Of a DNA stretch of 64,000 bases, positions 1,166 to 26,323 are shown in pieces. The translations under genes were made by a program, and so were the position numbers. This DNA is from Bacilli bacterium (lineage in GTDB: Bacteria; Bacillota_I; Bacilli_A; RFN20; CAG-826): positions 117,632 through 181,631 of the forward strand of contig JBAZED010000001.1 of NCBI GenBank assembly GCA_041654095.1. The letters are read 5' to 3'. The stretch's first letter is position 1; every line of letters starts with the position of its first letter. Below the pieces are notes generated by a model. The model ran no database searches and was not told where the DNA came from. It worked only from the letters and a program-made list of their open reading frames with translations.

Positions 1166-1167
1166 AG

Positions 1168-1350: not shown

Positions 1351-1386
1351 AAACGGTCATCATGGACGGACCTCCCTCCATCCGAG

Positions 1387-1414: not shown

Positions 1415-1454
1415 ACACTAGTATTTTTCTAGGACTAATTTGTGCAAATTGCCT

Positions 1455-1483
1455 TTGCTACATTCAACCTTTATATATATAAT
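1455..1483 (+). promoter_or_regulatory. sigma-A-like promoter for ftsA-ftsZ
   Basis: TTGCTA - 17 nt - TATAAT, just upstream of the ATG at 1508. Confidence 0.45.
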
Positions 1484-1507
1484 ATAATTCAGAATAAATG
1501 CTCTAAC

Positions 1508-2736: not shown

Positions 2737-3879
2737 ATGCAAGGATCTGATCTAGACAATTTCGAACCGATCGCCCGCATCGTCGTCATCGGCGTCGGCG
2801 GAGCCGGAAATAATGCTGTCAATCGCATGATTGATGAGGATTTAGGAGCCGTCGAATTTTACGTCGCCAATACCGATCGTCAAACGCTGGCGACATCAAA
2901 GTCGCGCAATCGCATCGTCCTCGGACCGTCCGTCACGGGCGGATTAGGCGCTGGCGGAGAGCCGAGCGTCGGTCGCGAAGCGGCCACAGCTTCCATCGAA
3001 GATATCCGCAAAGTCGTCAAAGGGGCCAACATGGTCTTCATCGCCGCCGGCATGGGCGGAGGAACGGGCACAGGAGCGGCTCCGATCGTCGCGCAAGTGG
3101 CACGCGAAGAAGGCGCCTTGACCGTCGCCATCGTCACGCGTCCCTTCACATTCGAAGGCAAGAGGCGCATCGCCAATTCCGTCGAAGGATTAAATGAACT
3201 CAAAGATGCGGTTGACGCCATCATCATCGTGTCCAATGATAAATTGCTGATGGTCAGCGGTACCCAGCCGATTTCCGAAGCTTTTGCCGAGTCGGACCGC
3301 GTCTTGGCGCAGTCGGTCAAGACCGTCACCGATTTGATTTTAATGCCGGCCGTCATCAACCTCGATTTCGCCGATGTCCGCAATACCTTGAAGGATTCCG
3401 GCATATCGCTGATCGGCTTTGGCTTAGGTCAAGGACCTAACAGAGCCCAAGAAGCCGCTCAAAATGCCATTAACTCGCCCCTTTTGGAAGCGAGCATCAA
3501 CGGCGCGAGACGGGCGATTTGCTCCGTCACTTGCGGGCCGAGCGTGAGCTTGTACGAAGCCCAAGAAGCCGTCGATTTGGTCATCGAAGCTGCGGGCAAT
3601 AACATCGACGTCAAATTCGGCGTCGCCATCAACAATCAATTGAGCGATCAGATTCTCGTCAGCGTCATCGCCAGCGATTTCACCGAGGAATTCGATTTCA
3701 CCAGCGTCCCCAACTATTCTCAGCAGCTGCGCTTTCAACGGCCGGATGCTGAAAAGAATAACGACGATGGCGAACCCAAACAAGCCAAAGAAGAAAGGGA
3801 AGAAGAAGTCGAGTCCAACGATCTCTCGAGCGAAGATTCGATCTTGCCGAGCTTCTTAAAAAACAAGCACATTGACTAA
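2737..3879 (+). CDS. ftsZ: Cell division GTPase FtsZ
   Basis: GGGTGTG tubulin signature (VIGVGGAGNNAVNRM, AAGMGGGTGTGAAP); acidic C-terminal tail; RBS GGGGGA. Confidence 0.95.
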   Translation: MQGSDLDNFEPIARIVVIGVGGAGNNAVNRMIDEDLGAVEFYVANTDRQTLATSKSRNRIVLGPSVTGGLGAGGEPSVGREAATASIEDIRKVVKGANMVFIAAGMGGGTGTGAAPIVAQVAREEGALTVAIVTRPFTFEGKRRIANSVEGLNELKDAVDAIIIVSNDKLLMVSGTQPISEAFAESDRVLAQSVKTVTDLILMPAVINLDFADVRNTLKDSGISLIGFGLGQGPNRAQEAAQNAINSPLLEASINGARRAICSVTCGPSVSLYEAQEAVDLVIEAAGNNIDVKFGVAINNQLSDQILVSVIASDFTEEFDFTSVPNYSQQLRFQRPDAEKNNDDGEPKQAKEEREEEVESNDLSSEDSILPSFLKNKHID

Positions 3880-5608
3880 AATTACCAATAGATTAAGTCT
3901 TCGAAAAGCTCTTATTTTTACGTTGGGTTTTTTCGTCCTATTAACATCTTGCGACGGTGGCAATTCGAGCGACACATCGTCATCTTCATCGGGTAATTCG
4001 GCATCGTCTTCCGGTCCGGATATCGAATATCAAGATTACTATAGCGATTATTATGATTCTATTGAATCATGGACAGATGGTGATAATCTTCGCGAACAGC
4101 TGCGAACTCTAGTTAACTACAATGTTAATCTAGTTGACTTTAATGCTAGTTCTAACATTTGGGCCGTCAACCAGCTCGCCGACGAAACCATCGATAATTA
4201 CGATCGCATCGATATCGTCTATGGAAATTATCAGCCTTTAAAAACGTTCACGGCGAGCGGTTCAAACGGCGGCTGGCAGCGCGAACATGCTTTTGCGCAA
4301 TCGCTTGGTGATTTCGATGTAGCGAGCGCCAGCAGAAATGCAAATGAAAGCTTGATCATGAGAAGCGATTTTCATAATCTGTTCGCCTCCGATGGCACTT
4401 TGAATGGTTCCCGAAACAATCTGAATCTCGGCGATGTCACTTCCGAGATGGGAGCGATCAGCAACCCCAAAGATTCGTTTGGAAACGAAACGGAATGCTA
4501 TCGAACCGATTTCGTTTTTGAGCCGCCGGATAAGGATAAACCGATGTTATCTCGCGCCATATTCTATATCGCGACCCGCTTTGCCGATCTCGATGTCGTC
4601 GAAGGAATATCCGCCGTCAGAAGCAAAACCCATGGTATGTTGAGCGACTTGTTGGAATGGTCGGAAAGCCCTGTCACCAGGCGCGAATACAAGCATAATA
4701 TCGGGGTTTATCATTTTCAGAACAATCGGAATCCGTATATCGACTATCCCGAACTCGTCGACTATGTTTTCGGAGATAAAAAAGATGAAGCTGGCGTTTT
4801 AAAAACATTAAGACCATCATATTATGATGTGGTTCTCGCCGGCGGCGAAGAAAACGCTGGCGACACGCATAATTTGACGATAAGAAATGTCAAATCCAAT
4901 TATATGGTAGGCGACCCGTTTTCAAAAGCTGACGATTTAAAAGTCTTTACGGTAGCCAACGATTTAACATTAAGCGATAATTTAGGAATAACCGCTTTTG
5001 AAACGACATATGCTGATTTTTACCATTTTGTTGATGGCGATCTCGGTAAGAAAACGGTATCCGTATCACATCAATCTTTCAATGTCTCTTATGAGATCGA
5101 AATCATCTCAAGCGCATCATCTTTAGCACTCTACAAGTATATATTGACCGCCGACGATGCATTCAAGGACAAAACAGCGCAGAGCACGCCTTATTCGATC
5201 ACTTTAGGCGGTTTGGCTTTTGACTTTTACATGAAGAGCGGATATGCATCGCAATTTCAAGCATCTGCCGGAACCGGTCGGCAGTTCGGAACAAAAGATT
5301 ATCCGATCGACAATATGTATCTCGAGACCAGCTCGCCGTTTAATGTCGATGATAAAACGCGAGTCAATGCCGTTTATATCGTCGCTTCGACGAACAAAAA
5401 CCCAGGGGCATCCCCAGCTATTAATGTGAGCATCGGCGAGTATTCTTTCCCGCAAAGAGCGCTGATCATCGGTCCGAGCGGAACGAATACGCTCTATAGC
5501 TTTGAAGTTCCAGAAGAAGGATCATACGAAGGAAAGGTGCGAATCGCCTTTAGCGGCTTCACCGATGGAGCGTTATATATCAAACAGTTTGCAATCAATG
5601 CCGTTTAG
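3872..5608 (+). CDS. Surface lipoprotein with Endonuclease-I (EndA/Vvn) family nuclease domain
   Basis: Lipobox LLTSC plus Ser-rich linker; motifs WQREHAFAQS and DFHNLFASDGTLNGSRNN match Endonuclease_1 catalytic motifs; its start overlaps the ftsZ stop by 8 nt. Confidence 0.72.
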   Translation: MTKITNRLSLRKALIFTLGFFVLLTSCDGGNSSDTSSSSSGNSASSSGPDIEYQDYYSDYYDSIESWTDGDNLREQLRTLVNYNVNLVDFNASSNIWAVNQLADETIDNYDRIDIVYGNYQPLKTFTASGSNGGWQREHAFAQSLGDFDVASASRNANESLIMRSDFHNLFASDGTLNGSRNNLNLGDVTSEMGAISNPKDSFGNETECYRTDFVFEPPDKDKPMLSRAIFYIATRFADLDVVEGISAVRSKTHGMLSDLLEWSESPVTRREYKHNIGVYHFQNNRNPYIDYPELVDYVFGDKKDEAGVLKTLRPSYYDVVLAGGEENAGDTHNLTIRNVKSNYMVGDPFSKADDLKVFTVANDLTLSDNLGITAFETTYADFYHFVDGDLGKKTVSVSHQSFNVSYEIEIISSASSLALYKYILTADDAFKDKTAQSTPYSITLGGLAFDFYMKSGYASQFQASAGTGRQFGTKDYPIDNMYLETSSPFNVDDKTRVNAVYIVASTNKNPGASPAINVSIGEYSFPQRALIIGPSGTNTLYSFEVPEEGSYEGKVRIAFSGFTDGALYIKQFAINAV

Positions 5609-5624
5609 TGCGTATTATAATATA

Positions 5625-5836
5625 ATAAAGCGTTGACGAAGACACGCCTTTGACGATTTAGCGAGATAACGAGGGTGCGAGGTTATCAAAAGTCGGAGGT
5701 ATCACTTCTGAGCGAGACCTGAAAAGAGTAGGGAATCCGTCCATCCGGCGTTAAGGAAATGAAGGGTCGTGCAGAAGTGCATGAAACTAAGGTGGTACCG
5801 CGCATTTGCGTCCTTAGAGAGGACGCTTTTATTTTG
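5625..5836 (+). promoter_or_regulatory. T-box riboswitch leader of ileS
   Basis: T-box sequence AAACUAAGGUGGUACCGCG at 5784-5803 overlapping the terminator stem gcgtcct/aggacgc (5808-5826) plus UUUUAUUUU; candidate promoter TTGCAA..TATTAT/TATAAT at 5589-5626. Confidence 0.8.
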
Positions 5837-5851
5837 CGAAGAGGAGCGATT

Positions 5852-8583
<2,732 letters not shown>

Positions 8584-8584
<1 letters not shown>

Positions 8585-9231
8585 TGAAATGGAAACCGAT
8601 AGCGTATTTTAAAGGCAAGAGCTTAAAAGAGATAGCTAAGGATTTCTTTTTCTCGTTCTTGTGGCTGCTTGTCGTTATTTTTGTCATTGATCTCGTCACG
8701 AAATGGGTTGTCGTCGCCAATTTGCACGAATATCAAGACGTCGTCGTCATCGACAGCTTCTTCTATCTGCGCCTCTCTTTTAACCAGGGAGCGGCCTTTG
8801 GCCTCGGCGATACCGGCGATGTCGAGTGGCGTATTTTGTTCATCGCCGTCTCGCTCGTCATCGGGACGGGCATGCTCATCTACTACATCAAAAAATATGC
8901 GTCGTTGAATATCATCATGAAAATCGCTCTGATCATGATGATCGCCGGCGCGTATGGCAATCTAATCGATCGCGCCTTCTATTGGCCTTCGACGGTCGGC
9001 TTCAGCGGCGTCATCGACTTCCTGTCGTTTGAATTCTGGGGCCGTCGCTTTGCGACGTTTAACGTCGCGGATATGTCGCTCGTCGTCGGCGTCATCGTCA
9101 TGCTCGCCGCCATTGTCGTCGACGACCTAAGACACGCCAAGAAGAAGAGCAAAGAAGACCTCTCGAGACCAGCGCCGGAATACCTCGCGGAAAAAGAAAT
9201 GAAAAATGGAAGCAAAGACGATCAATCATAA
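8584..9231 (+). CDS. lspA: Lipoprotein signal peptidase II
   Basis: ATG overlaps the ileS TGA; motifs NQGAAFG and FNVADMS; four TM segments; conserved ileS-lspA linkage. Confidence 0.9.
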
Positions 9232-10179: not shown

Positions 10180-12249
10180 CTAGCCGTTGAATTCGACAAG
10201 GCCGAAGACCATGCCCATAAAGCCAGTGCCTGATCCGATGTTGTAGTATACATTCATATAATCGCCGGTAAAATAATTAGCAGGAGCCCCGGGTTCATAT
10301 TTTGTTGCAATAGGAACCCCGCCTACACTAATGAGCCCTTGAGGATTAGGATTCAATAGTGCTGCTGGGCCATCTGACGATTGAAAGCGGGCGTATTCGG
10401 GGCCAAAGCCACTTGCTGAGGTCATAAATGCACCCTTGAAATCAAGAGCCACATTTTCATCGATTTGAATTTTTCCGTTAACCTTAGCAGATGTCGGTTC
10501 CGCGACACCTCCGTCTTTGATGAGACCGATCATGTTGAAATGGGCGATGGGATCAGGCTTTCCGGTGACGGTGATCATCTTCACAATTGATTTTGACCCA
10601 TAATATGGCAACAACTGTGTTCCAAGGGCAACCAACTGCGCGGCAGCACCTGTGGCGCTGACGAGCCTAAACCAGTTCTCGTCACCGGTGACATATGATT
10701 CTAATAATGAATTTTGGACAAGCGTTTGAGGTTGGTATCCGCCCTCTCCTGTCACTTCATCTGCATAGACGTGATCAGAGATGAGAACCGGACCACCTGC
10801 GCCGATAAATTCACAATCCTTAATGAGCAAGTTGGTAGTACCAAAGTTGTAAAGCATGCTGCTGAACGAGTCGTAACCGCGCGTTTTTTCGATCGTGGCA
10901 TTCGGACCGGAGAATTCAGTCAGGAAAATGGTGAAGCACTGTGTGGCGATGACATTATAAACAAGGGAGTCGACACTCAACGTCTTCGAAAAGATGGCAC
11001 CTCCTGATTTCACAGCTTCTTCGGTGCGGTTGGCATTGCCGACGACCGAGAGATTTTTCAGCTCGTAATCGCCTAAATCGTCACCGGTTTGGGCATTGCC
11101 AGCCTTGATGACTGTAGCGTGCGAAATGACTTTTCCCTCTTCTGTAGGACTCTCGACAGAATCCTTAGCTTCGCGAACGACAACAGGTAGCGATGAATAA
11201 TCAAGGTTGAAGTAATTGCCATTGATTACAAAATCTTCGCTAGGAAGAATATCTCGGTAATATACGCCGACGTCATCGCGTAGCGAACCGATGATGCGCG
11301 GGTAGTCGGCACCGTCAGTTGGGGCATCGCTGTCGCCTTCCATGTAGAAGAAACCATCCGGCAATTTGTCGCGTTCGATTTTGATGTCATTGTGGAAGAA
11401 GAGGCCGTCGATGTCGACTTGAGTAATGCCTTTGGCTGTGCGATAGCTATTCCATATATTGACATTGATGTTATCGAAATGGGACAAGTCATCTTGCTTG
11501 TAGACGTTATATCCATTCGCAATCGTAAATATAAAAGAAGTCTCAAATTTGGGTGCCGTTGCGTATTCATCGCCGGCCGGCCGGACGCTCAAACTGTAAG
11601 TCTTGCCGATCGCTGCTTCGGCGAAGTCGTAACTCGATGCGAATTCGTCGATGGCGACGGCAGCGTCGAGTTCAGCACCGGTCAAAGTGACCCATTCGTC
11701 CCCGCGTTTTTCCTTGACGACAGAACTGCTGTGATAAGCGGTGACATTCATCTCCTCACCTTCGGAGTCATAAGCGTAGATAGTCGGGAAGAAGATGAAG
11801 GGATTATCGTCGCCGACGAAGTAGCCTTGTTTGAGATCCTTAAACTCATTGCGCTTGTTCTCGGCACTTTTAGTGGCGATATTGGCTGTGTAGTTGGTGA
11901 CGAACTCAGGCGCGCCGATATTGGTGATCTCATCATATTGGACTATGGTGTAAGTCCAGACGATGCTCTCCGTCTCATAGGCGACGGTGATATCAAATTC
12001 GCCCAATTCGGAAGTATTGAGGGTAGTCGGCGTAAAAGTCAAATTCGCACCATTAATCGTTATCGTCTTATTCTCAAAAGTCGCGGTGACGCTGACTTCA
12101 TTGAGGTCGACGACGGTGTATTGAACGTATTCTTCTTGAAGTCCAGAGGCGACTTCGATGTCGAGCAAGTCGCCATATTCCTCGACGACCGGATCACATC
12201 CGGCGAGAGACATCATAACGAGCGGTAGAAATAGTAAACTCTTTTTCAT
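10180..12249 (-). CDS. Large surface lipoprotein (689 aa); possible Ig-like N-domain plus beta-helix-like body
   Basis: Lipobox LAGC|D; Asn/Thr/Gly-rich with repetitive beta-strand-like segments; last gene of the minus-strand ABC cluster; fold assignment is inference. Confidence 0.65.
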   Translation of the reverse strand: MKKSLLFLPLVMMSLAGCDPVVEEYGDLLDIEVASGLQEEYVQYTVVDLNEVSVTATFENKTITINGANLTFTPTTLNTSELGEFDITVAYETESIVWTYTIVQYDEITNIGAPEFVTNYTANIATKSAENKRNEFKDLKQGYFVGDDNPFIFFPTIYAYDSEGEEMNVTAYHSSSVVKEKRGDEWVTLTGAELDAAVAIDEFASSYDFAEAAIGKTYSLSVRPAGDEYATAPKFETSFIFTIANGYNVYKQDDLSHFDNINVNIWNSYRTAKGITQVDIDGLFFHNDIKIERDKLPDGFFYMEGDSDAPTDGADYPRIIGSLRDDVGVYYRDILPSEDFVINGNYFNLDYSSLPVVVREAKDSVESPTEEGKVISHATVIKAGNAQTGDDLGDYELKNLSVVGNANRTEEAVKSGGAIFSKTLSVDSLVYNVIATQCFTIFLTEFSGPNATIEKTRGYDSFSSMLYNFGTTNLLIKDCEFIGAGGPVLISDHVYADEVTGEGGYQPQTLVQNSLLESYVTGDENWFRLVSATGAAAQLVALGTQLLPYYGSKSIVKMITVTGKPDPIAHFNMIGLIKDGGVAEPTSAKVNGKIQIDENVALDFKGAFMTSASGFGPEYARFQSSDGPAALLNPNPQGLISVGGVPIATKYEPGAPANYFTGDYMNVYYNIGSGTGFMGMVFGLVEFNG

Positions 12250-12804: not shown

Positions 12805-14481
12805 TTAGTTTATCCGATCATAATAATACGCTTTTATTTTTTCGACGAAAAAGTAGATGGCCGCCCCGAAGAAGACCACGCCGATCAAGAGCAATTTCAA
12901 GAAGGCGAGGCTGAAACTCGTCTCAGGTATAAACTGTTCTTCGTTAAGAAAAGCAAAAGTGATAAAAGCGAATAAAAAAGCGGTCGCAAAGGCAAAGATC
13001 GTCGCTTTCGTCTCGTTGGGATTGTTAATTTGCTCGCCGACGGTCGCGTATTGCTCGTTCTGCGGATTCATCAAATCCATGAGGGCGCAGAAGAGGAGAT
13101 GGCCGACTTGAATGAAGGCCAAAGCAAAGCACAACAGAATAATATTGATGTGAATATAATGGACGTGCATGTTGAAAATTAAGAGCGAAACAGATAAGGA
13201 AGCAACCGATAAAACGATGTTTGGCAATAATTTGGCGATGAGCGGGAAGATGATTTTAACGGGTTTCGTCCGCTTCATGTAAGCGGTGCGCCCTTCCCTA
13301 GAATAGAGCGTGGCGATATAGCTATTTGAAGCCATGAGGGGCAACATGATAATCAAGACATTGAAGGCTTGGACCATGAATTCACCAACGAGGTACAAAT
13401 CCATGGAAGCAAAAATCCGGTTGATGAGCAAGACGACCAAAGGGATAGCGATGTAGGTGGCGATAAAATTGTAGGTGAATTCGCCGGAGCGGAAGAGCAG
13501 CTTTAACTCCTTGAGAGTAAAAGAGATGAAAGGCGGTAAGCGGCGGTTCATAAGCGCCTTGACTTTAAATTTCTTCTCATATTCGAAACTGGCAGCCGTC
13601 ATCTTGATGAAGATGAGGCGCGATAAGAAGTAGATGGACATAAAGAGGGTCGCCAAAATGCCGATGAGGCTGAAGAAGATGAGCCAGACATCGAGGTTGG
13701 CGTATGAGTAGCGCATCGCCGCATCATATTTTCCGACGACCATGACGACGACGTAATAGATGGGGGAGAAGACCTCTTGAAAAAACATCGTCACGTCCGA
13801 GAGCATTATTTTGAGCGGAACCCAGTAAAGGAGGACATTTATTTCGTTAGGTATCAATAAAATCAAGCGGGCGAGCAGGTAGACGCAACCCGCCAAAACA
13901 GCGATGAAAACGGCGATTTTGACGATGCGGTGGCGGTTTAAAAAGCGGAAAATAAAGAGCCCGGGAACGGATAGGACGACGCCGATGACGACCGGGATCA
14001 TCGAGACGAAGAAAAAGGCGATGAAGACCCAGATGTAGAAAAACCAGTTGACCGGAGACATCACGCCATAAGCGATGAAGATGGGCAGAGTAAAAGTCAC
14101 GTTCTTGTAAATTTCGTAGATGTAAAAGACGATGATTTTCGATAAGAAGATGCGGTTGGCGGAGATGGGATAAGTCACCAGGACTTGATTGTCTTCGGCC
14201 ATGTAGAGCGACTTGATGAGCTCCAGCGTGCAAGTGACGATTGAAATACCGAGTATGATCGTCATCAGCATCGTCATGACCGAGGTGGGAATGAAAGGAG
14301 AATTGTGGAAGATCTTCAAAAATGAAGAGAGGAATAAGATGCCAAACGCGATGGCAAAGACGAGCAGAAACCGCAAGATGAAAAAGACGATTTTGCGAAT
14401 TAGCTGCGGCCGATCTCTGATAAACCCTAAGTCGAGTTTATCCTTGAGCTGCATTATGACAAGCGTTTTGATATCTTTCAT
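12805..14481 (-). CDS. Polytopic membrane protein, probable ABC-2-type exporter permease (558 aa)
   Basis: At least 10 hydrophobic helices; lies immediately downstream (4 nt) of an ABC ATPase gene; no recognisable enzymatic motif. Confidence 0.65.
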   Translation of the reverse strand: MKDIKTLVIMQLKDKLDLGFIRDRPQLIRKIVFFILRFLLVFAIAFGILFLSSFLKIFHNSPFIPTSVMTMLMTIILGISIVTCTLELIKSLYMAEDNQVLVTYPISANRIFLSKIIVFYIYEIYKNVTFTLPIFIAYGVMSPVNWFFYIWVFIAFFFVSMIPVVIGVVLSVPGLFIFRFLNRHRIVKIAVFIAVLAGCVYLLARLILLIPNEINVLLYWVPLKIMLSDVTMFFQEVFSPIYYVVVMVVGKYDAAMRYSYANLDVWLIFFSLIGILATLFMSIYFLSRLIFIKMTAASFEYEKKFKVKALMNRRLPPFISFTLKELKLLFRSGEFTYNFIATYIAIPLVVLLINRIFASMDLYLVGEFMVQAFNVLIIMLPLMASNSYIATLYSREGRTAYMKRTKPVKIIFPLIAKLLPNIVLSVASLSVSLLIFNMHVHYIHINIILLCFALAFIQVGHLLFCALMDLMNPQNEQYATVGEQINNPNETKATIFAFATAFLFAFITFAFLNEEQFIPETSFSLAFLKLLLIGVVFFGAAIYFFVEKIKAYYYDRIN

Positions 14482-14485: not shown

Positions 14486-16705
14486 TTAGCCTTGCTTTGA
14501 TTCCTCGTTTACACTCGGAGTTGGTTCATCGTCGATAACGGCCGTCATCAAATAGTATTCCTCGAGCGTTCCTTGCTTGTGAACATCGTCAATCGTCATC
14601 GGTTCGTGGAGATGGCCTTTTTTAATGACGGCGATGCGCTGGCAGAGATTTTCGACGACATCGATGATGTGGCTCGAGAACATGACGATGTTGCCTTTGG
14701 CGGCGTGTTGCCGCATGCACTCTTTGACTTGGTAGATGCTGTCGGGGTCAAGGCCGGTCAGAGGTTCGTCGAGCAACCAGAGTTTGGGCTCGTGGATTAA
14801 CGCGGCGATGATTGTGACTTTCTGCTTCATGCCGTGCGAAAAAGTCTTGATTTGGCTGTCGAAAGAGTCTTCGAGATGGAAGAGGCTGACATAGTAGGGA
14901 ATCCGCTCTTGCCGCTCGTCATAAGTGACGCCGTAAATGTCGGCGATGTAATTGACGTACTCGCGAGCCGTCAACTTTTCGTACAAGGCATAGTGGTCGG
15001 GGACATAACCGATGAGGCGCTTGGCCATAACGGGTTGTTTTTCGACGTCATAACCGCAGATCGAGATCGAACCTTCGGTGATCGTCTGAATGCCGACGAT
15101 CGATTTGATGGTCGTCGACTTGCCGGCGCCGTTGGGTCCGAGGAAGCCGAAGATCTCTCCGCCGAAGACATTCAACGAAATATCCTTGACGGCGAAATCC
15201 TTGTTTTTTCCGTAGCGTTTGGAGAAGTTTTTCAGCTCCAACTTCACTCCTGTATTCAGTTCCATGGGTTCTTCGAGCCCCCTTCCGTTTAACGATGCTA
15301 ATAAAGCTATTTGATCGAGGCGCATTTTCTTTTGGCGAACGCGGAGGTCACCGAGCGAATCAGCTATGCTGAAACCGACGCTGTAGACGAACCACATCGC
15401 AAAGGAAACGCCGACGTAGACGAGTAAGAAGAGCGCTTGGTAGACCGGGTGAAAAGTAAATGATAAATCGCCGATCATAAAGCTGGAGGAGATGTTGAAG
15501 ATACTCTCGGCCCAGACCCCTAATTTGTCGACGATGAAGTCGCTGTTGATAAAGAAGAAGTCGACGGTCGCGTAATTGCTGAACCAGACATTGAGAATCA
15601 TAACCAATATAAAATAAGCCGAAAAGGCGATGAGCGAATAGTACATCTGCTTCATCTTCGGACGTGGGAATAAGCGTAAAGCGACAAGGAGCAAGGGCAT
15701 GAAAAAGGCCAGGGCGTGGTTGTACCAGAATTGGATGATGACCCAACTCGTCAAGTTCGTGGTTTCCGCATAGTTGGGCATCAGCATCGCCATCAGCGCA
15801 CCGAAAACGTTGATGAAATAAGTGAAGTAAAACAGCTTATCCAGTTTAAATATCAAGCAGATCGGAATGATGTACATGGCGGTATTGCAGAGGTGGATGG
15901 GCCATGTCCACGGCTCCAGGAAATTCCCATAGTAGAAAACGCGCGAAAAGGTGATCATCGTCGCGACGCTCAGATAGACCATGGCAAAGCGGATGATTTC
16001 ATCGTCCTTTTTCTTCAGCGCGAAATAGATGATGAAAGGGATGGTGATCGTCGCGTAGATGAAGAGGCGGTGGACGAAGGAGATATCGATTACTTCATAG
16101 CGGGCGTTCGCGCTTCCGAACATAATCTGCGGGCCGTAGATGGGAAGGCTGGCGAGAAAGATGGGGATGATTGCCAAGAGCAAATTGATGATCTCTGCCT
16201 TAGGCAGTTTGAAGGAGGCGTCCTCGCGCCAGACGATGAACAAACCATAGGCGATCAATCCGCTTTCGAGGGCGAACATAATCGTCGGAAGCGATAAGCC
16301 GAGAGTTCCGGCCGCGTTTCCGATTAGTTGCAGATAGACGCTGTAATATGAAAATCCAAGATAGAAAAGAAATCCGGGCGTGAAGACGAACTTGATGAGG
16401 TTAGCGAGCGTCTTGACTTTGAAAAAAGGATAGAGCATGAGCAAGACGGCTAAAGCAAGTTCAATCCAGATTCCGAAATATGCAAAGAAAGTGAGGGCCG
16501 GAGCAAAAGGGCCTCCAGCTAGGCTGATGATGCTGACAGCCTGATCGGAATACGAAAAATAGCGAACGGCGAAGACGGCAGCTAAAATGATCGCATAAAT
16601 TTTCGCGTATCTTTTCGTCTTGCGTGCGCGCGTTAACCAAAAAGTCAACAAAGCCCCGATGAGGGCTGCGCCAAGGGCGATGAGATGCGACAGGTAATGT
16701 GTCAA
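14486..16705 (-). CDS. ABC transporter ATP-binding protein fused to a large N-terminal polytopic membrane domain (739 aa)
   Basis: C-terminal ~250 aa carry Walker A GPNGAGKST, signature SHGMKQK, Walker B LWLLDEPLTGLD and an H-loop; N-terminal ~470 aa are membrane-embedded with a WPIHLCN motif reminiscent of the YwaF/TIGR02206 (TMEM164-like) family; TTG start with AGGA RBS. Confidence 0.85.
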   Translation of the reverse strand: MTHYLSHLIALGAALIGALLTFWLTRARKTKRYAKIYAIILAAVFAVRYFSYSDQAVSIISLAGGPFAPALTFFAYFGIWIELALAVLLMLYPFFKVKTLANLIKFVFTPGFLFYLGFSYYSVYLQLIGNAAGTLGLSLPTIMFALESGLIAYGLFIVWREDASFKLPKAEIINLLLAIIPIFLASLPIYGPQIMFGSANARYEVIDISFVHRLFIYATITIPFIIYFALKKKDDEIIRFAMVYLSVATMITFSRVFYYGNFLEPWTWPIHLCNTAMYIIPICLIFKLDKLFYFTYFINVFGALMAMLMPNYAETTNLTSWVIIQFWYNHALAFFMPLLLVALRLFPRPKMKQMYYSLIAFSAYFILVMILNVWFSNYATVDFFFINSDFIVDKLGVWAESIFNISSSFMIGDLSFTFHPVYQALFLLVYVGVSFAMWFVYSVGFSIADSLGDLRVRQKKMRLDQIALLASLNGRGLEEPMELNTGVKLELKNFSKRYGKNKDFAVKDISLNVFGGEIFGFLGPNGAGKSTTIKSIVGIQTITEGSISICGYDVEKQPVMAKRLIGYVPDHYALYEKLTAREYVNYIADIYGVTYDERQERIPYYVSLFHLEDSFDSQIKTFSHGMKQKVTIIAALIHEPKLWLLDEPLTGLDPDSIYQVKECMRQHAAKGNIVMFSSHIIDVVENLCQRIAVIKKGHLHEPMTIDDVHKQGTLEEYYLMTAVIDDEPTPSVNEESKQG

Positions 16706-16764: not shown

Positions 16765-16793
16765 ATTATAGCACCGGAGGACCATTTTGTTAA
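16765..16793 (-). promoter_or_regulatory. sigma-A-like promoter of the ABC cluster
   Basis: On the minus strand TTAACA - 17 nt - TATAAT, about 55 nt upstream of the TTG start. Confidence 0.5.
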
Positions 16794-16796: not shown

Positions 16797-16820
16797 TCAT
16801 AAAATGGATTTATAATCCAT
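16797..16820 (-). terminator. weak terminator hairpin after the MBL lipoprotein gene
   Basis: Palindrome ATGGATT-tat-AATCCAT spanning the stop codon, followed on the minus strand by a U-rich tract (UUUAUGAUAUUU). Confidence 0.35.
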
Positions 16821-18138
16821 GGCAGACCTGACCCCACGATGTGCTTTGAATATCGCTATATCGATCGGTCGTCGATCCGTAATTATTGGTTATGCTACCG
16901 CGATATGAAGTGCCTTCATAATTCGTCCGAAGCGGCGAGCCTTCCATATAGACTTTGCTGAGTCCGTCGGTCACGAAAGAAGTCGTCCCATTCACGAAAT
17001 TGAGATATATCTTCGGCACGGTGCGCTTGGCTCCTTTAGTTAAATATCGGTCGAGAGTTTGATAGTGCGGGTGACCGGCGCACACGCCGGTACTCCCCCC
17101 ATATGAAGTGTCGGCGAAAGGAGCGCCGGCCGAGATGGTTACGAGTTTCGGTTGCAGGACATTGAGCAAGACATTGTTGCTCGCCTTCGACGAGCCGTGA
17201 TGAGGAGCTTTCATCATCGTCACGGTATGGAAGACATCAGTGTTGGTCGCGTTGGTCTGAACCAGGCGCGTTTCACCAGAACCGCCCGTCCCCCCGTAAT
17301 AGCCGCTTGGATTGTCCTGCAAATCGCCCGAGAAGAAATAGGTGAAATTGCGGTATGAGAGAATTCCGGTCACACAAGTGACATTTAAATCATCGACTAC
17401 GGGTCCATCATTGTAATTGGTGGAATAATAGCCCGTATCGAGCCAATCGATGAAGACTTCGGAAGTGACATAAGTGCGTTTCATTCCGCCGTTTGTTCCA
17501 TTGACCATATCGTAAATGCGGTGATATTCGCTGTCTTGACCAACATAATAGTCGCGAATATTGGTGCGATAATTTTCTCCGCCATATTCGTAATAACCAT
17601 AATCGACGATCATGTCGATTGAAGAAACGGCCGCGCGCAGCGCCAAATACCCCCCATAGTGATCGCTATGAGGATGTGTCAAAATCAAGAGATCTAAGTG
17701 TCCATCATCGAGATAGGCATCATACGTGTTTTTTAATAGGTTGTAATAGGTCGATGAATCGCTAAAGGAAGAAGATGCGTAATTTCCAAAATCCATGACG
17801 ATGGTCGCATCGCCAACTTTGAACAGATATGCATCGCCAACCTCAATCGGTTGCTCGAAAACGACGATTTCCAAATAATCAAACGATGAGTTGGAGAGGG
17901 GGTGAGAGGCGCTTCCTAGGGGCGCTTGCGAATCATAGGTCGCGTTTTGCGCGTCGGTTTTGTCATCCGAACCAATTGCTACGCCGGTGTCAGCCATCGT
18001 CGCGATGCGCTCGGCGTATCCTTGATTCGTTTCGCTGCTCGATGAACCATCGGTGTTCGAACTGCTCGAATTATCGTGCGGGCCGCACGAAGACAAAACG
18101 AGCAGTAAAAGCAAGAGAAACAGCGGTATTCTTTTCAT
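16810..18138 (-). CDS. Surface lipoprotein with ComEC-type metallo-beta-lactamase (MBL) fold domain
   Basis: Lipobox LSSC|G with Ser-rich linker; motifs LILTHPHSDHYGG and APHHGS as in the ComEC/Rec2 C-terminal MBL nuclease domain; start overlaps the rnhC stop (ATGA). Confidence 0.78.
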   Translation of the reverse strand: MKRIPLFLLLLLLVLSSCGPHDNSSSSNTDGSSSSETNQGYAERIATMADTGVAIGSDDKTDAQNATYDSQAPLGSASHPLSNSSFDYLEIVVFEQPIEVGDAYLFKVGDATIVMDFGNYASSSFSDSSTYYNLLKNTYDAYLDDGHLDLLILTHPHSDHYGGYLALRAAVSSIDMIVDYGYYEYGGENYRTNIRDYYVGQDSEYHRIYDMVNGTNGGMKRTYVTSEVFIDWLDTGYYSTNYNDGPVVDDLNVTCVTGILSYRNFTYFFSGDLQDNPSGYYGGTGGSGETRLVQTNATNTDVFHTVTMMKAPHHGSSKASNNVLLNVLQPKLVTISAGAPFADTSYGGSTGVCAGHPHYQTLDRYLTKGAKRTVPKIYLNFVNGTTSFVTDGLSKVYMEGSPLRTNYEGTSYRGSITNNYGSTTDRYSDIQSTSWGQVCHGL

Positions 18139-19079
18139 TTGATATCATCCTTTAAGGCGATGCGAGTAAAATTCTTGAAATTACCCTTCGCGATTTTTAA
18201 AAGCTCTTCCCGTCCGTGTTTTTCGATAAATGACATGGCGAATTCGTCAACTTTATGCGAGGCTCCAAAAGGCAATGTGGTCTTGTATTTTTTACCGAGG
18301 AGCTCCATCTTCTTAAGAAATGAATAACGGGCGATGACGCTGGCGAGAGCGACGGATGGGAAGCGCGATTCGCCCTTCGTTTTAAAAGTGATGTCGCTGA
18401 CGATTTCGACATCGCGCGCAGCATAATTGAAATAACGGGATTCCGAGACGAACTTGTCGACATAGACATGTTTGACATCGGGGTGCCTCTTCAGCAAGTT
18501 GAGGAGGACGCGGTTGTGAAGACGGGCTTTAATTTCATTGAGATTGATGCCTTTATTAACTAATTCGTTATATTTCTCGTTGTTGAGACTGACTTGCGAG
18601 TAGGCGAATTTCTTGAGTAATTGCGAGGCGATGAATCGGATGTGTTCATCGGTCATCTTCTTCGAATCGGTAACACCGATTTTTTTAAGGTATGCGACAT
18701 CTTGTTTACGCACAAGAGCGGCGCAGACCGTGATCGGCCCGAGAAAATCGCCGGTCCCGACTTCGTCGCTGCCTATCTGGTCCTCGATGTCAAACCAACC
18801 CAGTGGTTCATCCTCTTTATCCTCGATATCGAACAGAGTGATGCCTGGGTCCCAACGCGAGGCTTCTTTGGTAAAATCGCCGCCGGCAAAGGTCACTTTT
18901 GCGTCCTTGCCTTTAGTATTTTGGTAGGCGGTAATCGTCGTTTTGCCGACTTTGGCGCGAAACAAAACATAATCGCCGTTATTTTCAATGAGATAGTGTT
19001 GATATGCTTGCTCTATTCTTGCGAGCAGTTGCGCGCTAACTTTAATCGTCACCATGTGATTAGTCATAATTTGCCTCAA
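18135..19079 (-). CDS. rnhC: Ribonuclease HIII
   Basis: 314 aa; N-terminal DUF3378-like region plus RNase HII/HIII catalytic core (DEVGTGDFLGP...). Confidence 0.88.
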   Translation of the reverse strand: MRQIMTNHMVTIKVSAQLLARIEQAYQHYLIENNGDYVLFRAKVGKTTITAYQNTKGKDAKVTFAGGDFTKEASRWDPGITLFDIEDKEDEPLGWFDIEDQIGSDEVGTGDFLGPITVCAALVRKQDVAYLKKIGVTDSKKMTDEHIRFIASQLLKKFAYSQVSLNNEKYNELVNKGINLNEIKARLHNRVLLNLLKRHPDVKHVYVDKFVSESRYFNYAARDVEIVSDITFKTKGESRFPSVALASVIARYSFLKKMELLGKKYKTTLPFGASHKVDEFAMSFIEKHGREELLKIAKGNFKNFTRIALKDDIK

Positions 19080-23250: not shown

Positions 23251-23327
23251 GTCCTCTTAGCTCAGCTGGATAGAGCAACGGCCTTCTAAGCCGTAGGTCA
23301 GGCGTTCGAATCGCCTAGAGGATGCCA
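23251..23327 (+). tRNA. tRNA-Arg (anticodon UCU)
   Basis: Cloverleaf folds by eye: acceptor GUCCUCU/AGAGGAU (G1.U72 wobble), D-arm GCUC-AGCUGGAUA-GAGC, anticodon stem ACGGC/GCCGU with loop CUUCUAA, T-arm AGGCG-UUCGAAU-CGCCU, discriminator G, encoded CCA. Confidence 0.88.
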
Positions 23328-23426: not shown

Positions 23427-25349
23427 ATGCCAAACAACAAGACGCTCACCAAATTATTATTCACCAGTTTAACGATTGTAGGAATCGTTTCCTTCAGCGT
23501 TCTCTTCAACCCATCGAGCGCGCAAGTCGATGGCGAAGGAAGCGGCGAAGTAAACTGCGAATACTATTTTGCGGAGAGCAATAATTACACATCGATACAC
23601 ACTATCGTCGGTAACCTGAATGATGGTATTACCGGGGTTTCATACAAGACTTGGGGCACGGTTACAAAGTACTACCTCGATTCAAACGGCTATCAGAATT
23701 TCTACATACAAAGCACCGATCAAAACGGCAATTTTGCCGGCATGATGATCTACCGGAGCAGCATCGAAGTGGCGGAGGGAAACGTCTTAACCGTCGAAGG
23801 AATCGCCTCGCTATACAATAATTTGCCGGAATTCGTCAACCCGGCGAGGATCGACGTCGATTATGAAGTCAACTCCTCATCGGTCGAAACCTATGTGACG
23901 GATGAATCGTTTTGGCAAAACGGAACGAACCCTTCCTCGTCGCAATTCATCGAGGGCGAAAGCCTCGGAATCTTGAAAATCGCTTTAAACGACGTTGTTT
24001 TAACGTATAATTCCTCTGGAAATGCGACTGTCGTTTTTGCGGGGATGACGAGCGTTCCGCTCTATTATGGCTATCTATCGCAGACAGCGGCGATCGACAG
24101 CTACCTTTATCCGCTAAGCGGATCGACCGTCGATGTCGTTGGCTATCTTCACTGCTATGCCGACGGATATACCTATATGATGCAGTGTTTGATCCGCGGT
24201 GCCGGTGATGTCATCTCCGAAAGCAGCGGCTCTTCCCTGACGCTCAATTCAACCAATTATTACGAGATTGGTACGTATTCGACAGGAAACTACGCTCGCA
24301 CTAATGTAGGCGGTTTTAATTTCGAGCATTATCGAGTCATAAAGCCAAGTTATGGCAATCCGGAATTCATGATTTTGCTACCTTATTTCAACGCTTACGG
24401 AGACGGAACCGCAGCGGGCGCTTTCTATAATGTGTCGGCGATAAACGACATCGAAAGCATCGCTCTTACTTATCGCACGGAGGCGGATTTCGGAATAAAG
24501 CCAACTTTGTCTTATGGCGAAGATATATCGTGCGGCATCTCGATAGAACTTGACCTATCTACCATTTCAGAGACGGCGACGTTGGAAGTGGCAAATGCGA
24601 ATTTTTTCAAAATCGAGACCACCGGAAGCAAATTGTATCTGGAAAGCATCGAAATCGACTATGCCAACGCCGGTCCGGCTGATGAATTCGCCTTCCTCAG
24701 CGCCGGTCAAAACCTCAATCGAATTAATCCGATTGTCAGCACCGGTTCCCTCTACGACGGAAAAAGTGTCCAAGTTCCTTCTTCAATCGCCAAAACGGGT
24801 AGCTATTACGCCGTCCAAAATACGGCGACTTACACCTATTATTCCTATGATTATATCGCTCTTAATCCGGTTTATGCCGACCAAGCCGCGTATACGGCGC
24901 CTGAAGATGTCGCCGCCTATTTCACGACTTTTGGCACTTGGCCGGCGAACTATGTTAACAAGGCGAATTACAATGCTGCGCACGATCTTTTCGGTGATGA
25001 TACGCGCTGCGTCTCGACTTATTCGTGGGATGGCGGATACGCGGTAGCCGTTCCTTATCAAGTGGGCGGCGGCGATCTCCCTCTTTATCATGAATGTGAC
25101 ATCGCTCTCGACTCCTCTTATTCGGGTACCAACCGAGGGGTGGGGCGCGTCATCTGTTGGGAGTATGGCTTTGATTCTTCAAAGGGAGCTGCGAACTACG
25201 ATTCCGCGCCGGTCTGCATCTACACCGATGATCACTATGCGACCTTCCAAGAATATCTGAATGCCGGCTCGTTCGGGACGCGGTTCAACGCCGAGATGGC
25301 GCGCACCGATCACGTCTGGGGAGCGGCGACGACGCTCCTGCCCTCATAA
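23427..25349 (+). CDS. Secreted/surface 640-aa protein with C-terminal barnase/RNase Sa-family (microbial guanyl-specific RNase) domain
   Basis: N-terminal signal peptide (LLFTSLTIVGIVSFSVLF..SSA|Q) with no lipobox; the C-terminal ~110 aa (nt ~24900-25260) align to barnase/RNase Sa: PANYVNK helix, YHECDI (general-base Glu), NRGVGRVIC (Arg pair), YTDDHYATF (catalytic His). Confidence 0.75.
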   Translation: MPNNKTLTKLLFTSLTIVGIVSFSVLFNPSSAQVDGEGSGEVNCEYYFAESNNYTSIHTIVGNLNDGITGVSYKTWGTVTKYYLDSNGYQNFYIQSTDQNGNFAGMMIYRSSIEVAEGNVLTVEGIASLYNNLPEFVNPARIDVDYEVNSSSVETYVTDESFWQNGTNPSSSQFIEGESLGILKIALNDVVLTYNSSGNATVVFAGMTSVPLYYGYLSQTAAIDSYLYPLSGSTVDVVGYLHCYADGYTYMMQCLIRGAGDVISESSGSSLTLNSTNYYEIGTYSTGNYARTNVGGFNFEHYRVIKPSYGNPEFMILLPYFNAYGDGTAAGAFYNVSAINDIESIALTYRTEADFGIKPTLSYGEDISCGISIELDLSTISETATLEVANANFFKIETTGSKLYLESIEIDYANAGPADEFAFLSAGQNLNRINPIVSTGSLYDGKSVQVPSSIAKTGSYYAVQNTATYTYYSYDYIALNPVYADQAAYTAPEDVAAYFTTFGTWPANYVNKANYNAAHDLFGDDTRCVSTYSWDGGYAVAVPYQVGGGDLPLYHECDIALDSSYSGTNRGVGRVICWEYGFDSSKGAANYDSAPVCIYTDDHYATFQEYLNAGSFGTRFNAEMARTDHVWGAATTLLPS

Positions 25350-25396: not shown

Positions 25397-26323
25397 ATGG
25401 ATTCTCTGAAGACCTTAATTGAAAAAAAGCAGTACGCTTTGGTTTTGGAGTTGACTAAGGACAGCCTCGATGTCGATTCGATCTCGTATCGCATCGCCGC
25501 CTATCTCGGCCTCGGTAAACTCGAAGACGCCCTGCTCTTAATCGAAGAGCATAAAAGCGATTTTAAAGATGGTATTTTCAATATCATGAAAGTCCATTTT
25601 GAAGTCTTGTTCACCCTTCAAAAATACGATCGAGCCTACCAAGAATTGAAGTATTACCAAAACCTCCCTTATATTTCTCAAGAGGTCGAAGAATATTTAA
25701 ATGGCGCGGATTTGATGATTCGCCACCACGAGCGGAAGCAGAGATTGGACAAAAAACTGAGCAAAGAAGAGATAAATCGCATTTTAAATAGTGAAAACGA
25801 CGATGTCGTCCTGCTCGCCGCCCTCAACGACATCCGCGAGTATAAGATGAGCGAATTCTACCAGGTCATCATCCATTTTTTGAAGAGGCAAGACGCCCAT
25901 TCCCACGTCCGGACTTACGCTTTATTTCTCCTGGTCTCCGATGGTTATGACAAAACGGTGTCTTTTGATAAAAATGACAAGAATTACAAGGTCGTACCCA
26001 AAGATTTGGAACCGCCCTTCATGAATTCGCAATACGATGCGATCTTGCGCCGCCTCGAAACCATCGCCAAAGATCCTTCGGTGAGCGAAGTAGCAAATTC
26101 GCTTCTCAATGAGCTGATCATTATTTTATATCCCGATAACATCTTTTCATCGCCGAGCGAACTGCTCATCGGCGCCCTTCTCGTCTTGGCTTATGAACAC
26201 CTGCAAATCGCGCCGGATATCGCCGATCTGGCCTCCAACTTGAATATATCGATTAACGATTTGATGGTCTTCGTGCAGAAGCTCCAAAAAAATTTGGAGA
26301 GCAATCCGCCGATTCAAGCTTAA
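25397..26323 (+). CDS. Helical TPR-like cytosolic protein (308 aa), possibly YsoA-like conserved neighbour of tig
   Basis: All-helical and repeat-like; no signal peptide; located immediately upstream of tig, as the TPR protein ysoA is in Bacillus. Confidence 0.55.
   Translation: MDSLKTLIEKKQYALVLELTKDSLDVDSISYRIAAYLGLGKLEDALLLIEEHKSDFKDGIFNIMKVHFEVLFTLQKYDRAYQELKYYQNLPYISQEVEEYLNGADLMIRHHERKQRLDKKLSKEEINRILNSENDDVVLLAALNDIREYKMSEFYQVIIHFLKRQDAHSHVRTYALFLLVSDGYDKTVSFDKNDKNYKVVPKDLEPPFMNSQYDAILRRLETIAKDPSVSEVANSLLNELIIILYPDNIFSSPSELLIGALLVLAYEHLQIAPDIADLASNLNISINDLMVFVQKLQKNLESNPPIQA

Follow-up and report, generated by a model that had tools for sequence, protein, structure and literature searches.

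The lipoprotein gene that overlaps the end of rnhC in the 64-kb window (the whole stretch of DNA that was analysed) encodes a protein whose globular part is most likely a catalytically intact, two-metal metallo-beta-lactamase (MBL) phosphodiesterase of the ComEC nuclease-domain clade, with activity predicted from its conserved residues. On balance, the protein is probably an extracellular, membrane-anchored nuclease that serves in nucleic acid foraging and is co-transcribed with the RNase HIII gene for historical reasons. The link to rnhC looks inherited rather than mechanistic.

The rnhC–Lipoprotein Gene Pair

Both genes were found as ORFs on the minus strand (Table 1). The first-pass annotation had called the upstream gene RNase HIII, and this is borne out by a score of 194 bits against TIGR00716 (curated cutoff 161) and by Pfam matches to RNase_HII (3.7e-42) and, at the N-terminus, DUF3378 (1e-11). 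The reported overlap of the two genes is also real, and it is conserved in divergent relatives. At the junction the minus strand reads ...GAT ATC AAA TGA AAA GA..., with the rnhC TGA at 18137-18135 and the lipoprotein ATG at 18138-18136. Four-base ATGA overlaps are among the commonest types of operon junction in bacteria, so the overlap alone is unremarkable. Judging from the sequences compared, it is the conservation of the rnhC–MBL junction that exceeds chance. Across all rnhC-linked loci it spans −20 to +13 nt, being −4 (ATGA) in the window and in L001/L002, L006, L007, L014, L022 and L024, −1 (TAATG) in L025, +5 to +12 nt in L005, L008/L019-L021, L010 and L018, and, in L009, −20 or +13 nt according to the ATG chosen. 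Most related loci carry AGGA or GAGG at the position that corresponds to the AAGGA sequence of the window, a site which, beside the overlapping stop and start codons, would also permit independent initiation of the lipoprotein.

Table 1. Features of the rnhC–lipoprotein gene pair and of a second predicted nuclease gene (window coordinates).
Feature	Position	Strand	Basis or remark
Strong promoter-like site (TTAACA-17-TATAAT, TG present) separating the lipoprotein stop from the ABC genes downstream	16765..16793	−	Consensus match
Weak AU-rich hairpin AUGGAUU-AUA-AAUCCAU across the lipoprotein stop codon, then U-rich tract	16804..16820	−	
Lipoprotein gene, 442 aa, with MBL domain of the ComEC-CTD/Pce clade	16810..18138	−	
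C-terminal extension specific to the family (aa 396-442); ends in Cys439	16813..16953	−	
MBL catalytic domain, about aa 86-395	16954..17883	−	ComEC CTD alignment, conservation in 166 members, model
Ser-rich low-complexity linker, about aa 19-39	18022..18084	−	
Predicted signal peptide ending in lipobox L-S-S-C, whose Cys18 would start the mature protein and carry the lipid	18085..18138	−	
ATGA stop/start overlap of rnhC and lipoprotein gene	18135..18138	−	Read directly
rnhC (RNase HIII)	18135..19079	−	ORF from TTG 19079; more likely start at ATG 19067, which follows GAGG
AAGGA Shine-Dalgarno-like sequence within the 3' end of rnhC	18148..18152	−	9 nt 5' of the lipoprotein ATG
Endonuclease I (PF04231) lipoprotein gene, second predicted surface nuclease	3872..5608	+	Pfam 1.4e-25

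The promoter scan found no promoter-like site in the 3' part of rnhC. The best site of the region scanned, with 11/12 consensus matches, lies 3' of the lipoprotein gene. This strong consensus match points to a two-gene unit of rnhC and the lipoprotein gene, for which co-transcription is predicted. The hairpin at the end of the unit is a possible, weak terminator candidate; the fold of its whole region was no better than that of shuffled sequences (z -0.9), and the terminator scan made no call there.

The neighbours of the lipoprotein gene in the window are housekeeping genes. Between 12 and 24 kb there is no riboswitch or other Rfam element except one tRNA, and the GC content is flat over the same interval (0.44-0.51); horizontal acquisition was considered and rejected. 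A 640-aa protein encoded at 23427-25349 has a weak barnase-like match that was unconfirmed by a PDB sequence search.

Architecture of the Lipoprotein

The description of the downstream product as a lipoprotein with a lipobox and a Ser-rich linker also stood up. Its N-terminus, MKRIPLFLLLLLLVLSSC, contains a lipobox (LSSC) with Cys18, a residue with almost no variation across alignments A1, A3 and A4. The Pfam model LPAM_1 scored 18.3 bits, slightly below its cutoff of 20, and lspA, the gene for signal peptidase II, is present at 8488-9231 of the window. With a lipobox cysteine and lspA in the same genome, the features expected of a bacterial lipoprotein are in place, and the protein would be exported and receive a lipid at Cys18, while its linker, presumably flexible, would tether it to the cytoplasmic membrane on the outer side. 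The linker differs in length among homologues and had low confidence in the first structure model. Near the other end of the protein, Cys353 and Cys439 are either both present (19/166 family members) or both missing (144/166), and just 3/166 have only one of them. This co-variation fits an extracytoplasmic disulfide, and the two residues may form one.

An exhaustive search of the protein collection, in which the window lipoprotein is P0001, gave 569 cluster representatives at E <= 1e-10 and 11,354 at E <= 1e-3. About half of the best 166 family members have a lipobox-like N-terminus, and those members that carry a source name are all labelled as uncultured Bacilli.

Identity of the MBL Domain

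Membership of the MBL superfamily is supported by a Lactamase_B match (Pfam PF00753) of 29.5 bits, against a gathering cutoff of 22.7. The motif pair on which the first-pass annotation had based a ComEC-type domain is present as described, with THPHSDHYGG at aa 154-163 (nt 17650-17679) and APHHGS at aa 311-316 (nt 17191-17208), and it belongs to a complete MBL active site formed by D116, H155-x-H157-x-D159-H160, N252, D272, H313-H314-G-S316 and H356. Between 153 and 163 of 166 relatives retain D116, H155, D159, H160, N252, D272 and H313/H314. At position 157, His occurs in 132/166 and Asp in 30/166, the same two alternatives as in true ComECs. When aligned with ComEC C-terminal domains (CTDs), all motifs appear in order (GD...D, HxH/DxDH, DxN, GD, HHGS, GHP); HHGS (aa 313-316) and GHPH (aa 355-358) fall on their ComEC counterparts, and Asn252, the motif III residue, aligns with the ComEC DxN. 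Family-specific insertions interrupt the domain at about aa 119-131, 180-245, 275-290 and 340-352. His206 was also considered as the motif III ligand, being invariant in the close family, and was rejected: it sits in one of these insertions and varies between Tyr, His and Cys across the wider family, and it is Asn252 that aligns.

Profile and structure searches point in the same direction. The family profile matched ComEC chains best (9vc6, 2.6e-8; 9ic4, 1.8e-6; 30bt, 1.7e-5), with other MBLs at 1e-3 or worse. A first model, built from 14 close homologues, had a pLDDT of 57 and was not used; the second, from a deeper alignment that included stand-alone ComEC-like proteins, had a pLDDT of 93.9 and, together with the conserved residues, predicts the alpha-beta/beta-alpha fold with its metal-binding motifs. 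A Foldseek search with this model returned 9ic4 (8.7e-16), then Pce, and then CPSF73 and RNase J. The closest relatives in both sequence and structure are thus ComEC CTDs, which places the domain in the ComEC-CTD/Pce clade. The kinship that would have spoken against the first-pass annotation, a better match to class B beta-lactamases or glyoxalase II than to nuclease-type MBLs, was not found in these searches. By experiment, the ComEC CTD is a Mn-dependent DNase that requires residues of motif II, motif IV and HHGS (PMC8579336; PMC12455585).

The position of Pce in the structure search counts against the nuclease reading, since Pce is almost as close to the lipoprotein model as ComEC is. Pce (CbpE; 2bib, 1wra) is the phosphorylcholine esterase that S. 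pneumoniae uses on teichoic acid and not a nuclease. By analogy, the lipoprotein could be a surface phosphodiesterase with a substrate other than nucleic acid, one that strips teichoic acids, lipids or host molecules of phosphorylcholine or a different head group, or breaks down extracellular (cyclic) nucleotides. We regard this as unlikely. The family profile puts ComEC some six orders of magnitude ahead of Pce (E 2.6e-8 vs 0.014, Pce being a weak match), and motif III carries Asn, the ComEC state, in 153/166 members, whereas Pce has His at this position (PMC8579336). The HxHxDH form of motif II is also found in genuine ComECs (P0041, P0051 and P0049). Pce attaches to the cell by choline-binding repeats, which the lipoprotein lacks; with neither these nor the motif III His, it does not qualify as a Pce-type esterase. 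Finally, the neighbours of the gene in clade B (see below) are nucleases and not cell-wall genes.

Gene Neighbourhoods and the Link to rnhC

Relatives with UvrC just 50-54% identical also carry the rnhC–MBL pair, its two genes overlapping or almost touching, and the pairing persists at MBL identities of 30-40%. It forms part of a larger conserved block (uvrC-mutS2 <> rnhC-MBL ... rluD-lspA-ileS). As a negative control, 80 distant ComEC-like loci, including at least 18 full-length ComEC genes, were collected in a metagenome scan with generic motif II and HHGS patterns (12-sequence alignment); rnhC or Endonuclease I lay within 5 kb in 0/80 of them. The absence of rnhC near these generic loci indicates that the linkage is specific to the family of the window lipoprotein.

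Since the pairing outlasts the usual persistence of unrelated neighbours, a functional reason for co-expression is possible. Taken furthest, the persistence of the pair and its family-specific linkage could be read as a partnership, in which RNase HIII and the lipoprotein would jointly regulate the turnover of RNA/DNA hybrids or nucleic acids inside and outside the cell, or in which translational coupling would fix a stoichiometry relevant to function. Such a partnership is extremely unlikely. RNase HIII is predicted to be cytoplasmic because it lacks a signal peptide, so that the two products would occupy different compartments with no mechanistic coupling between them. The convergent rluD-lspA-ileS genes, a flanking order that is clearly non-operonic, are likewise conserved, and this indicates that the lineage simply rearranges little. 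In B. subtilis, too, rnhC adjoins mutS2, which would make the neighbourhood ancestral and the lipoprotein gene a probable insertion.

The pairing is also not universal within the family. None of the 10-13 kb loci examined from a nested sister clade (clade B) has rnhC next to the MBL gene, nor does it adjoin that gene in the loci examined for P0056 and P0066. Instead, 5/5 clade B loci have one or two Endonuclease_1 genes on the same strand, 17 nt to about 2.2 kb upstream, and the products of these genes are predicted to be secreted. Other relatives adjoin a gene for an LTD-domain protein or lie near a nucleobase permease gene. In a rough neighbour-joining tree, which carries no support values, the rnhC-linked P0053, P0054 and P0055 bracket the Endonuclease-linked clade; the neighbourhood data come from metagenome-assembled genomes. 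The first-pass annotation had singled out the operon of two nucleases as non-standard, but there is no sign of joint action by RNase HIII and the lipoprotein, given that the pair stands within a larger conserved block and that the clade B gene keeps company with Endonuclease I genes.

The arrangement would then be an operon of old standing, passed on vertically, through which the lipoprotein is expressed at a housekeeping level. As a long-lived operon joining a cytoplasmic to an exported enzyme it makes a neat illustration, and by itself is no pointer to new biology.

Proposed Role

The most likely activity of the lipoprotein is to cut extracellular DNA and/or RNA at the cell surface, with both substrate and metal being predictions. 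It would act alongside the Endonuclease I lipoprotein, whose gene lies 11 kb away and whose N-terminus (...FFVLLTSCDGGNSSDTSSSSSG) has the same design of lipobox and Ser-rich linker, and the two would supply the cell with nucleotides and phosphate.

The nearest characterised relatives are parts of a DNA-uptake protein, and a role in transformation instead of feeding has to be weighed. The lipoprotein could be a detached ComEC nuclease module that degrades one strand in trans for a ComEC channel without an MBL domain. Its closeness to ComEC CTDs and its matching topology favour such a module, and in most of the clade where Tenericutes branch with Erysipelotrichaceae the prevailing ComECs have the Competence domain alone (PMC6299819). 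In the same source, complete loss of ComEC is reported for Erysipelotrichaceae and Acholeplasmataceae, where some carriers of the gene are classified. Competence genes are absent from the 64-kb window and from the immediate surroundings of all family members examined, docking to a channel is not what a flexible tether suggests, and the association with Endonuclease I fits bulk degradation better, which together make a transformation role distinctly improbable. A more elaborate version, in which the ComEC of this lineage lost its MBL domain, the tethered lipoprotein replaces it in trans, and the long-conserved rnhC overlap couples the making of the module to an operon for DNA replication and repair, is very unlikely indeed; were it true, an RNase H gene would for the first time be known to be functionally linked to DNA import. 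Foraging by a surface nuclease is retained here as the preferred reading.

Comparison with Known Systems

The C-terminal nuclease domain of ComEC/Rec2 (9ic4, 9vc6, 30bt; PMC8579336; PMC12455585) is the best match in both sequence and structure. Both proteins would sit at the outer face of the cytoplasmic membrane, and two-metal phosphodiesterase chemistry is presumed to be common to them. The first-pass annotation had treated the outward orientation of the domain as a departure, which it is not, because the ComEC domain is itself extracytoplasmic, on the outer face of the same membrane (PMC8579336). Differences are nevertheless considerable. The lipoprotein is anchored by lipid and ComEC by transmembrane helices; Pfam finds neither the Competence channel domain (PF03772) nor the DUF4131 OB fold in the lipoprotein; and its scores against TIGR00361 (22 bits, cutoff 190) and PRK11539 (17, cutoff 969) leave it outside the ComEC/Rec2 DNA-uptake proteins. 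Identity to 9ic4 is just 19%, and the four insertions together with the N- and C-terminal extensions add about 140 residues. In motif II, His157 replaces the Asp of the studied Moorella and Bacillus ComEC domains, so the preferred metal may differ. The ComEC nuclease domain is more active with its OB-fold DNA-binding domain attached (PMC12455585), and no recognisable DNA-binding domain is present in the lipoprotein.

Nor is it unusual, as had been supposed, for such a domain to stand alone. Stand-alone ComEC-like MBLs are common in databases, and secreted or lipoprotein forms (e.g., P0039 from Clostridium sp.) likewise consist of a signal peptide or lipobox and one ComEC-type MBL domain, and also carry HPHxDH, HHGS and YGHP. 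They are 22-29% identical to the window lipoprotein and lack the family insertions and the Cys353/Cys439 pair. Several are named 'ComEC/Rec2 family competence protein' by their sources (P0039 by NCBI and UniRef), a name that is misleading, as the window lipoprotein lacks the domains and scores of uptake proteins, and that is no evidence of competence. The literature searched contained no characterised protein of this type. If its ectodomain is a nuclease, the lipoprotein would be a relative of the ComEC nuclease domain that is soluble, stands alone and is modelled with high confidence, which could aid the study of that chemistry.

Anti-phage MBL nucleases (Avs1a, LmuA-type, HamM, 6A-MBL) come from the same broad branch of MBL nucleases, one for which a comparison with ComEC has been made (PMC12799240). 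Matches to them are weak and lie on the N-terminal half of the MBL domain (Avs1a 31 bits, LmuA 30.7 bits), with the PADLOC matches spanning only aa 97-175. An anti-phage effector was rejected on these scores (Avs1a 31 vs a cutoff of 420, 6A-MBL 19 vs 220) and on location, the known effectors being cytoplasmic. No protease, NTPase or other defence partner was found near the lipoprotein gene.

In tethered architecture and proposed role, the closest parallels are the surface nucleases that support growth on extracellular DNA, such as the YokF/YncB lipoproteins of B. subtilis, Hvo_1477 of H. volcanii and ExeM of Shewanella (PMC3929857). Hvo_1477 was considered as a possible ComEC-like MBL lipoprotein and set aside, the paper describing a lipoprotein with a thermonuclease domain and not a ComEC homologue. 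Multiple extracellular nucleases are also known from Izemoplasmatales and related Bacilli (PMC8289736), and the window organism likewise encodes several predicted secreted nucleases. The folds of all these enzymes (staphylococcal nuclease, EEP, Endonuclease I) are unrelated to that of the MBLs, and MBL-fold enzymes are unmentioned in two surveys of DNA-degrading bacteria (PMC8289736; PMC10470597). If the ectodomain is a nuclease, it would add an MBL-fold enzyme to the surface nucleases that bacteria use for foraging on DNA and RNA.

The rnhC-MBL gene pair

The product of the gene upstream of the MBL lipoprotein gene is an RNase HIII, as the first-pass annotation had proposed, with a TIGR00716 score of 194 bits (cutoff 161) and Pfam matches to RNase_HII (3.7e-42) and, at the N-terminus, DUF3378. 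The ORF tool placed its start at TTG 19079, but the ATG at 19067, preceded by a well-spaced GAGG, is the likelier start. Read directly, the junction on the minus strand is GAT ATC AAA TGA AAA GA, so the rnhC stop and the MBL-gene ATG have the four bases ATGA in common, bearing out the overlap described earlier, and an AAGGA ribosome-binding sequence lies within rnhC, 9 nt 5' of that ATG. A promoter scan gave nothing towards the 3' end of rnhC; its top-ranked site, TTAACA-17-TATAAT with TG, falls in the interval separating the MBL stop from the ABC genes. A weak, AU-rich hairpin with a U tract behind it spans the MBL stop codon. From these consensus matches we infer that rnhC and the MBL gene form a two-gene transcription unit, with the ABC genes transcribed apart. 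The region shows no shift in GC content and so no sign of recent acquisition.

Features of the window and of homologous loci in other genomes (L numbers)
Sequence	Feature	Coordinates	Strand	Basis or position
Window	rnhC (RNase HIII) ORF	18135-19079	-	TIGR00716, Pfam matches
Window	ATGA overlap	18135-18138	-	rnhC stop/MBL-gene start
Window	MBL lipoprotein gene, 442 residues	16810-18138	-	ORF downstream of rnhC
Window	Cys353 codon	17080-17082	-	MBL lipoprotein gene
Window	Cys439 codon	16822-16824	-	MBL lipoprotein gene
Window	Promoter-like site	16793-16765		Consensus match
Window	TMEM164-like (aa 215-398)/ABC ATPase (aa 506-649) fusion	14486-16705	-	
Window	ABC_tran_2-type membrane protein	12805-14481	-	After the fusion gene
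Window	689-aa ORF	10180-12249	-	No Pfam match; PEGA only, sub-threshold
Window	lspA (signal peptidase II)	8488-9231		
Window	Endonuclease I protein, 578 aa	3872-5608	+	PF04231 at aa 72-294; just downstream of ftsZ
Window	tRNA gene	23251-23324	+	Rfam RF00005, 66 bits
Window	640-aa protein	23427-25349	+	N-terminal signal or anchor sequence
Window	308-aa ORF	25397-26323	+	No Pfam match
Window	874-aa ORF	42081-44705	+	No Pfam match
Window	195-aa ORF	46313-46900	+	No Pfam match
Window	282-aa ORF	46971-47819	-	No Pfam match
L003	Tandem duplicated Endonuclease I genes	3887-5983		Clade B; immediately upstream of MBL gene
L013	Tandem duplicated Endonuclease I genes	2974-5617		Clade B; immediately upstream of MBL gene
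L015	MBL match	6001-7399		Clade B; 1.48-Mb contig
L106	840-aa protein, LTD + aBig_2 domains	6561-9083		After MBL gene
L108	Xanthine/uracil-family permease	728-2263		MBL gene two genes downstream

The lipoprotein and its MBL domain

The protein begins MKRIPLFLLLLLLVLSSC, with a lipobox (Cys18) and then a Ser-rich stretch, and the motif pair THPHSDHYGG (aa 154-163) and APHHGS (aa 311-316) was located, all in keeping with the first-pass annotation; lspA is also encoded in the window. Its match to Pfam Lactamase_B (29.5 bits) exceeds the threshold of 22.7. When a profile of 14 family members was searched against all PDB sequences, the top three matches were ComEC entries (9vc6, 2.6e-8; 9ic4, 1.8e-6; 30bt, 1.7e-5), and other MBL types all gave 1e-3 or worse (Pce, 0.014; beta-lactamase II, 0.016; glyoxalase II, 0.25). 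A first predicted structure was dropped (pLDDT 57). With a model from a deeper alignment (pLDDT 93.9, pTM 0.93), the best Foldseek match was the ComEC beta-lactamase-like domain (9ic4, 8.7e-16), with Pce (1e-12 to 1e-10) second and two RNA nucleases, CPSF73 and RNase J, after it. As ComEC ranks first in both searches, subfamilies without nuclease function, glyoxalase II and true beta-lactamase for example, do not fit better.

The ComEC domain itself gives the same ranking, its nearest structure being Pce and its nearest nuclease RNase J (PMC12455585), and a ComEC-type nuclease and a Pce-type esterase are inseparable by fold alone. Sequence detail favours ComEC. In alignment, all motifs match genuine ComEC C-terminal domains: GD...D116, H155-x-H157-x-D159-H160, D-x-N252, G-D272, H313-H314-G-S316 and G-H356-P. 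Two residues distinguish ComEC from Pce in the account of Silale et al. (PMC8579336): in ComEC, motif II carries Asp at its second position, and motif III carries Asn where Pce has His. The motif III residue here is Asn252, kept in 153 of 166 relatives, while position 157 is His in 132/166 and Asp in 30/166, both forms also being seen in the aligned ComECs. His206 was rejected as motif III ligand, lying within a family-specific insertion and not being conserved in the wider family. A Pce-like esterase with a non-nucleic-acid substrate, which the shared fold would allow and the motif detail disfavours, therefore seems unlikely, and the ComEC-type assignment made at first pass is upheld by profile, Foldseek and motif alignment. 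Mutagenesis of the Moorella ComEC domain found motif II, motif IV and HHGS to be needed (PMC12455585); since these catalytic residues are all present, the enzyme is very probably active. The ComEC domains studied use Mn and have Asp at position 157, whereas His occupies it here, so the metal is not confidently predictable.

Compared with ComEC domains there are four insertions (about aa 119-131, 180-245, 275-290 and 340-352), an extra structured N-terminal element (~50 residues) and a C-terminal extension (~47 residues). Cys353 and Cys439 tend to occur together (both in 19, neither in 144 and a single one in 3 of 166 members), which suggests a disulfide linking the C-terminal extension to the loop preceding the GHP motif and is consistent with an extracytoplasmic location.

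Gene neighbourhood

At least twelve loci of clade A, the close relatives (MBL protein 60-69% and UvrC 82-90% identical to those of the window), share the order uvrC-mutS2 <> rnhC-MBL-ABC-ABC. The two genes meet in an ATGA in the window, L001/2, L006, L007 and L014 and stand 5-12 nt apart in L005, L008/L019-L021, L010 and L018; in L009 the spacing between rnhC and the MBL gene is -20 or +13 nt, by choice of start codon. The ABC genes, an unusual fusion and its ABC_tran_2 partner, occur in all clade A loci (78-83% and 69-75% identity) and are not found in the distant loci L022 and L025. In the window, a single tRNA gene separates uvrC from the 640-aa protein.

The pair is also present in three distant genomes, with ATGA junctions in L022 (P0053) and L024 (P0054) and TAATG in L025 (P0055). 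UvrC there is only 50-54% identical to that of the window (RnhC about 40%, MBL protein 30-40%), so the pairing is old. It is also specific to this family, rnhC being absent within 5 kb of all 80 generic ComEC-like MBL loci from metagenomes. This persistence and specificity would suit a genuine functional partnership with RNase HIII. However, the whole block is conserved: convergent rluD-lspA-ileS, which cannot belong to the same operon, come after the MBL gene in L022 and L025, and in the window they are found a few kb beyond it, so slow rearrangement accounts for much of the conservation and the linkage may lack functional meaning. Moreover, in the five loci examined of the sister clade B (L003, L004, L012, L013 and L015; 41-44% identity), no rnhC adjoins the MBL gene, and one or two same-strand Endonuclease I (PF04231) genes precede it in every case, with a gap of 17 nt in L003. 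We thus regard a functional partnership with RNase HIII as very improbable; the operon is long-conserved and its linkage probably historical. A rough NJ tree places clade B within the rnhC-linked lineages, so a place beside rnhC would seem ancestral and one beside Endonuclease I derived.

The two Endonuclease I copies of L003 share 62% identity end to end and 77% within the catalytic domain. The L015 MBL match falls in two tblastn segments overlapping at about nt 6554-6558, suggesting a frameshift, by sequencing error or in a pseudogene.

Proposed function

The window's own Endonuclease I is a lipoprotein (…FFVLLTSC) with the same lipobox and Ser-rich linker design as the MBL protein, and no Pfam family matches the last 280 residues of this Endonuclease I. 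Residues 548-609 of the 640-aa protein resemble the barnase-type 'Ribonuclease' family below cutoff (E 7e-4; 20.5 bits, cutoff 24), and a PDB sequence search with its C-terminal 200 aa gave no match; this protein is a possible third secreted nuclease. L106 and L108 hold more distant family members. LTD domains, as in the L106 neighbour, are common in extracellular nucleases.

The MBL lipoprotein would be a lipid-anchored two-metal phosphodiesterase at the cell surface, degrading extracellular nucleic acids and, jointly with Endonuclease I, releasing nucleotides and phosphate, a role to which we give slightly better than even chances. It is consistent with related uncultured Bacilli and Izemoplasmatales having several extracellular nucleases and growing on DNA (PMC8289736); MBL-fold enzymes are mentioned neither there nor in PMC10470597.

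Comparison with ComEC and stand-alone relatives

Pfam and TIGRFAM searches found neither the Competence channel domain nor an OB fold, and the TIGR00361 score of 22 bits is below the cutoff (190); by these profiles the protein is not ComEC. An exhaustive search returned 11,354 cluster representatives at E <= 1e-3, of which 569 reached <= 1e-10 and 45 reached <= 1e-30. About half of the best 166 members have a lipobox-like N-terminus, and every source-named one among them is labelled uncultured Bacilli. In the literature searched, no characterised member was found of the family or of stand-alone ComEC-like MBL proteins. The sources of some stand-alone distant matches name them 'ComEC/Rec2 family competence protein'. 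That the lipoprotein is a detached ComEC nuclease module in the service of transformation we consider distinctly improbable.

While the overlap and the domain assignment stood, the novelty first seen in a domain that faces outward and stands alone did not: the C-terminal domain of ComEC likewise lies on the outer face of the cytoplasmic membrane (PMC8579336), and many distant matches of 300-480 aa carry this domain only. The rnhC-MBL arrangement would hold little surprise for a specialist. The MBL lipoprotein is a lineage-specific version of a known domain type, and the Clostridium lipoprotein P0039 is likewise a stand-alone ComEC-like MBL protein.
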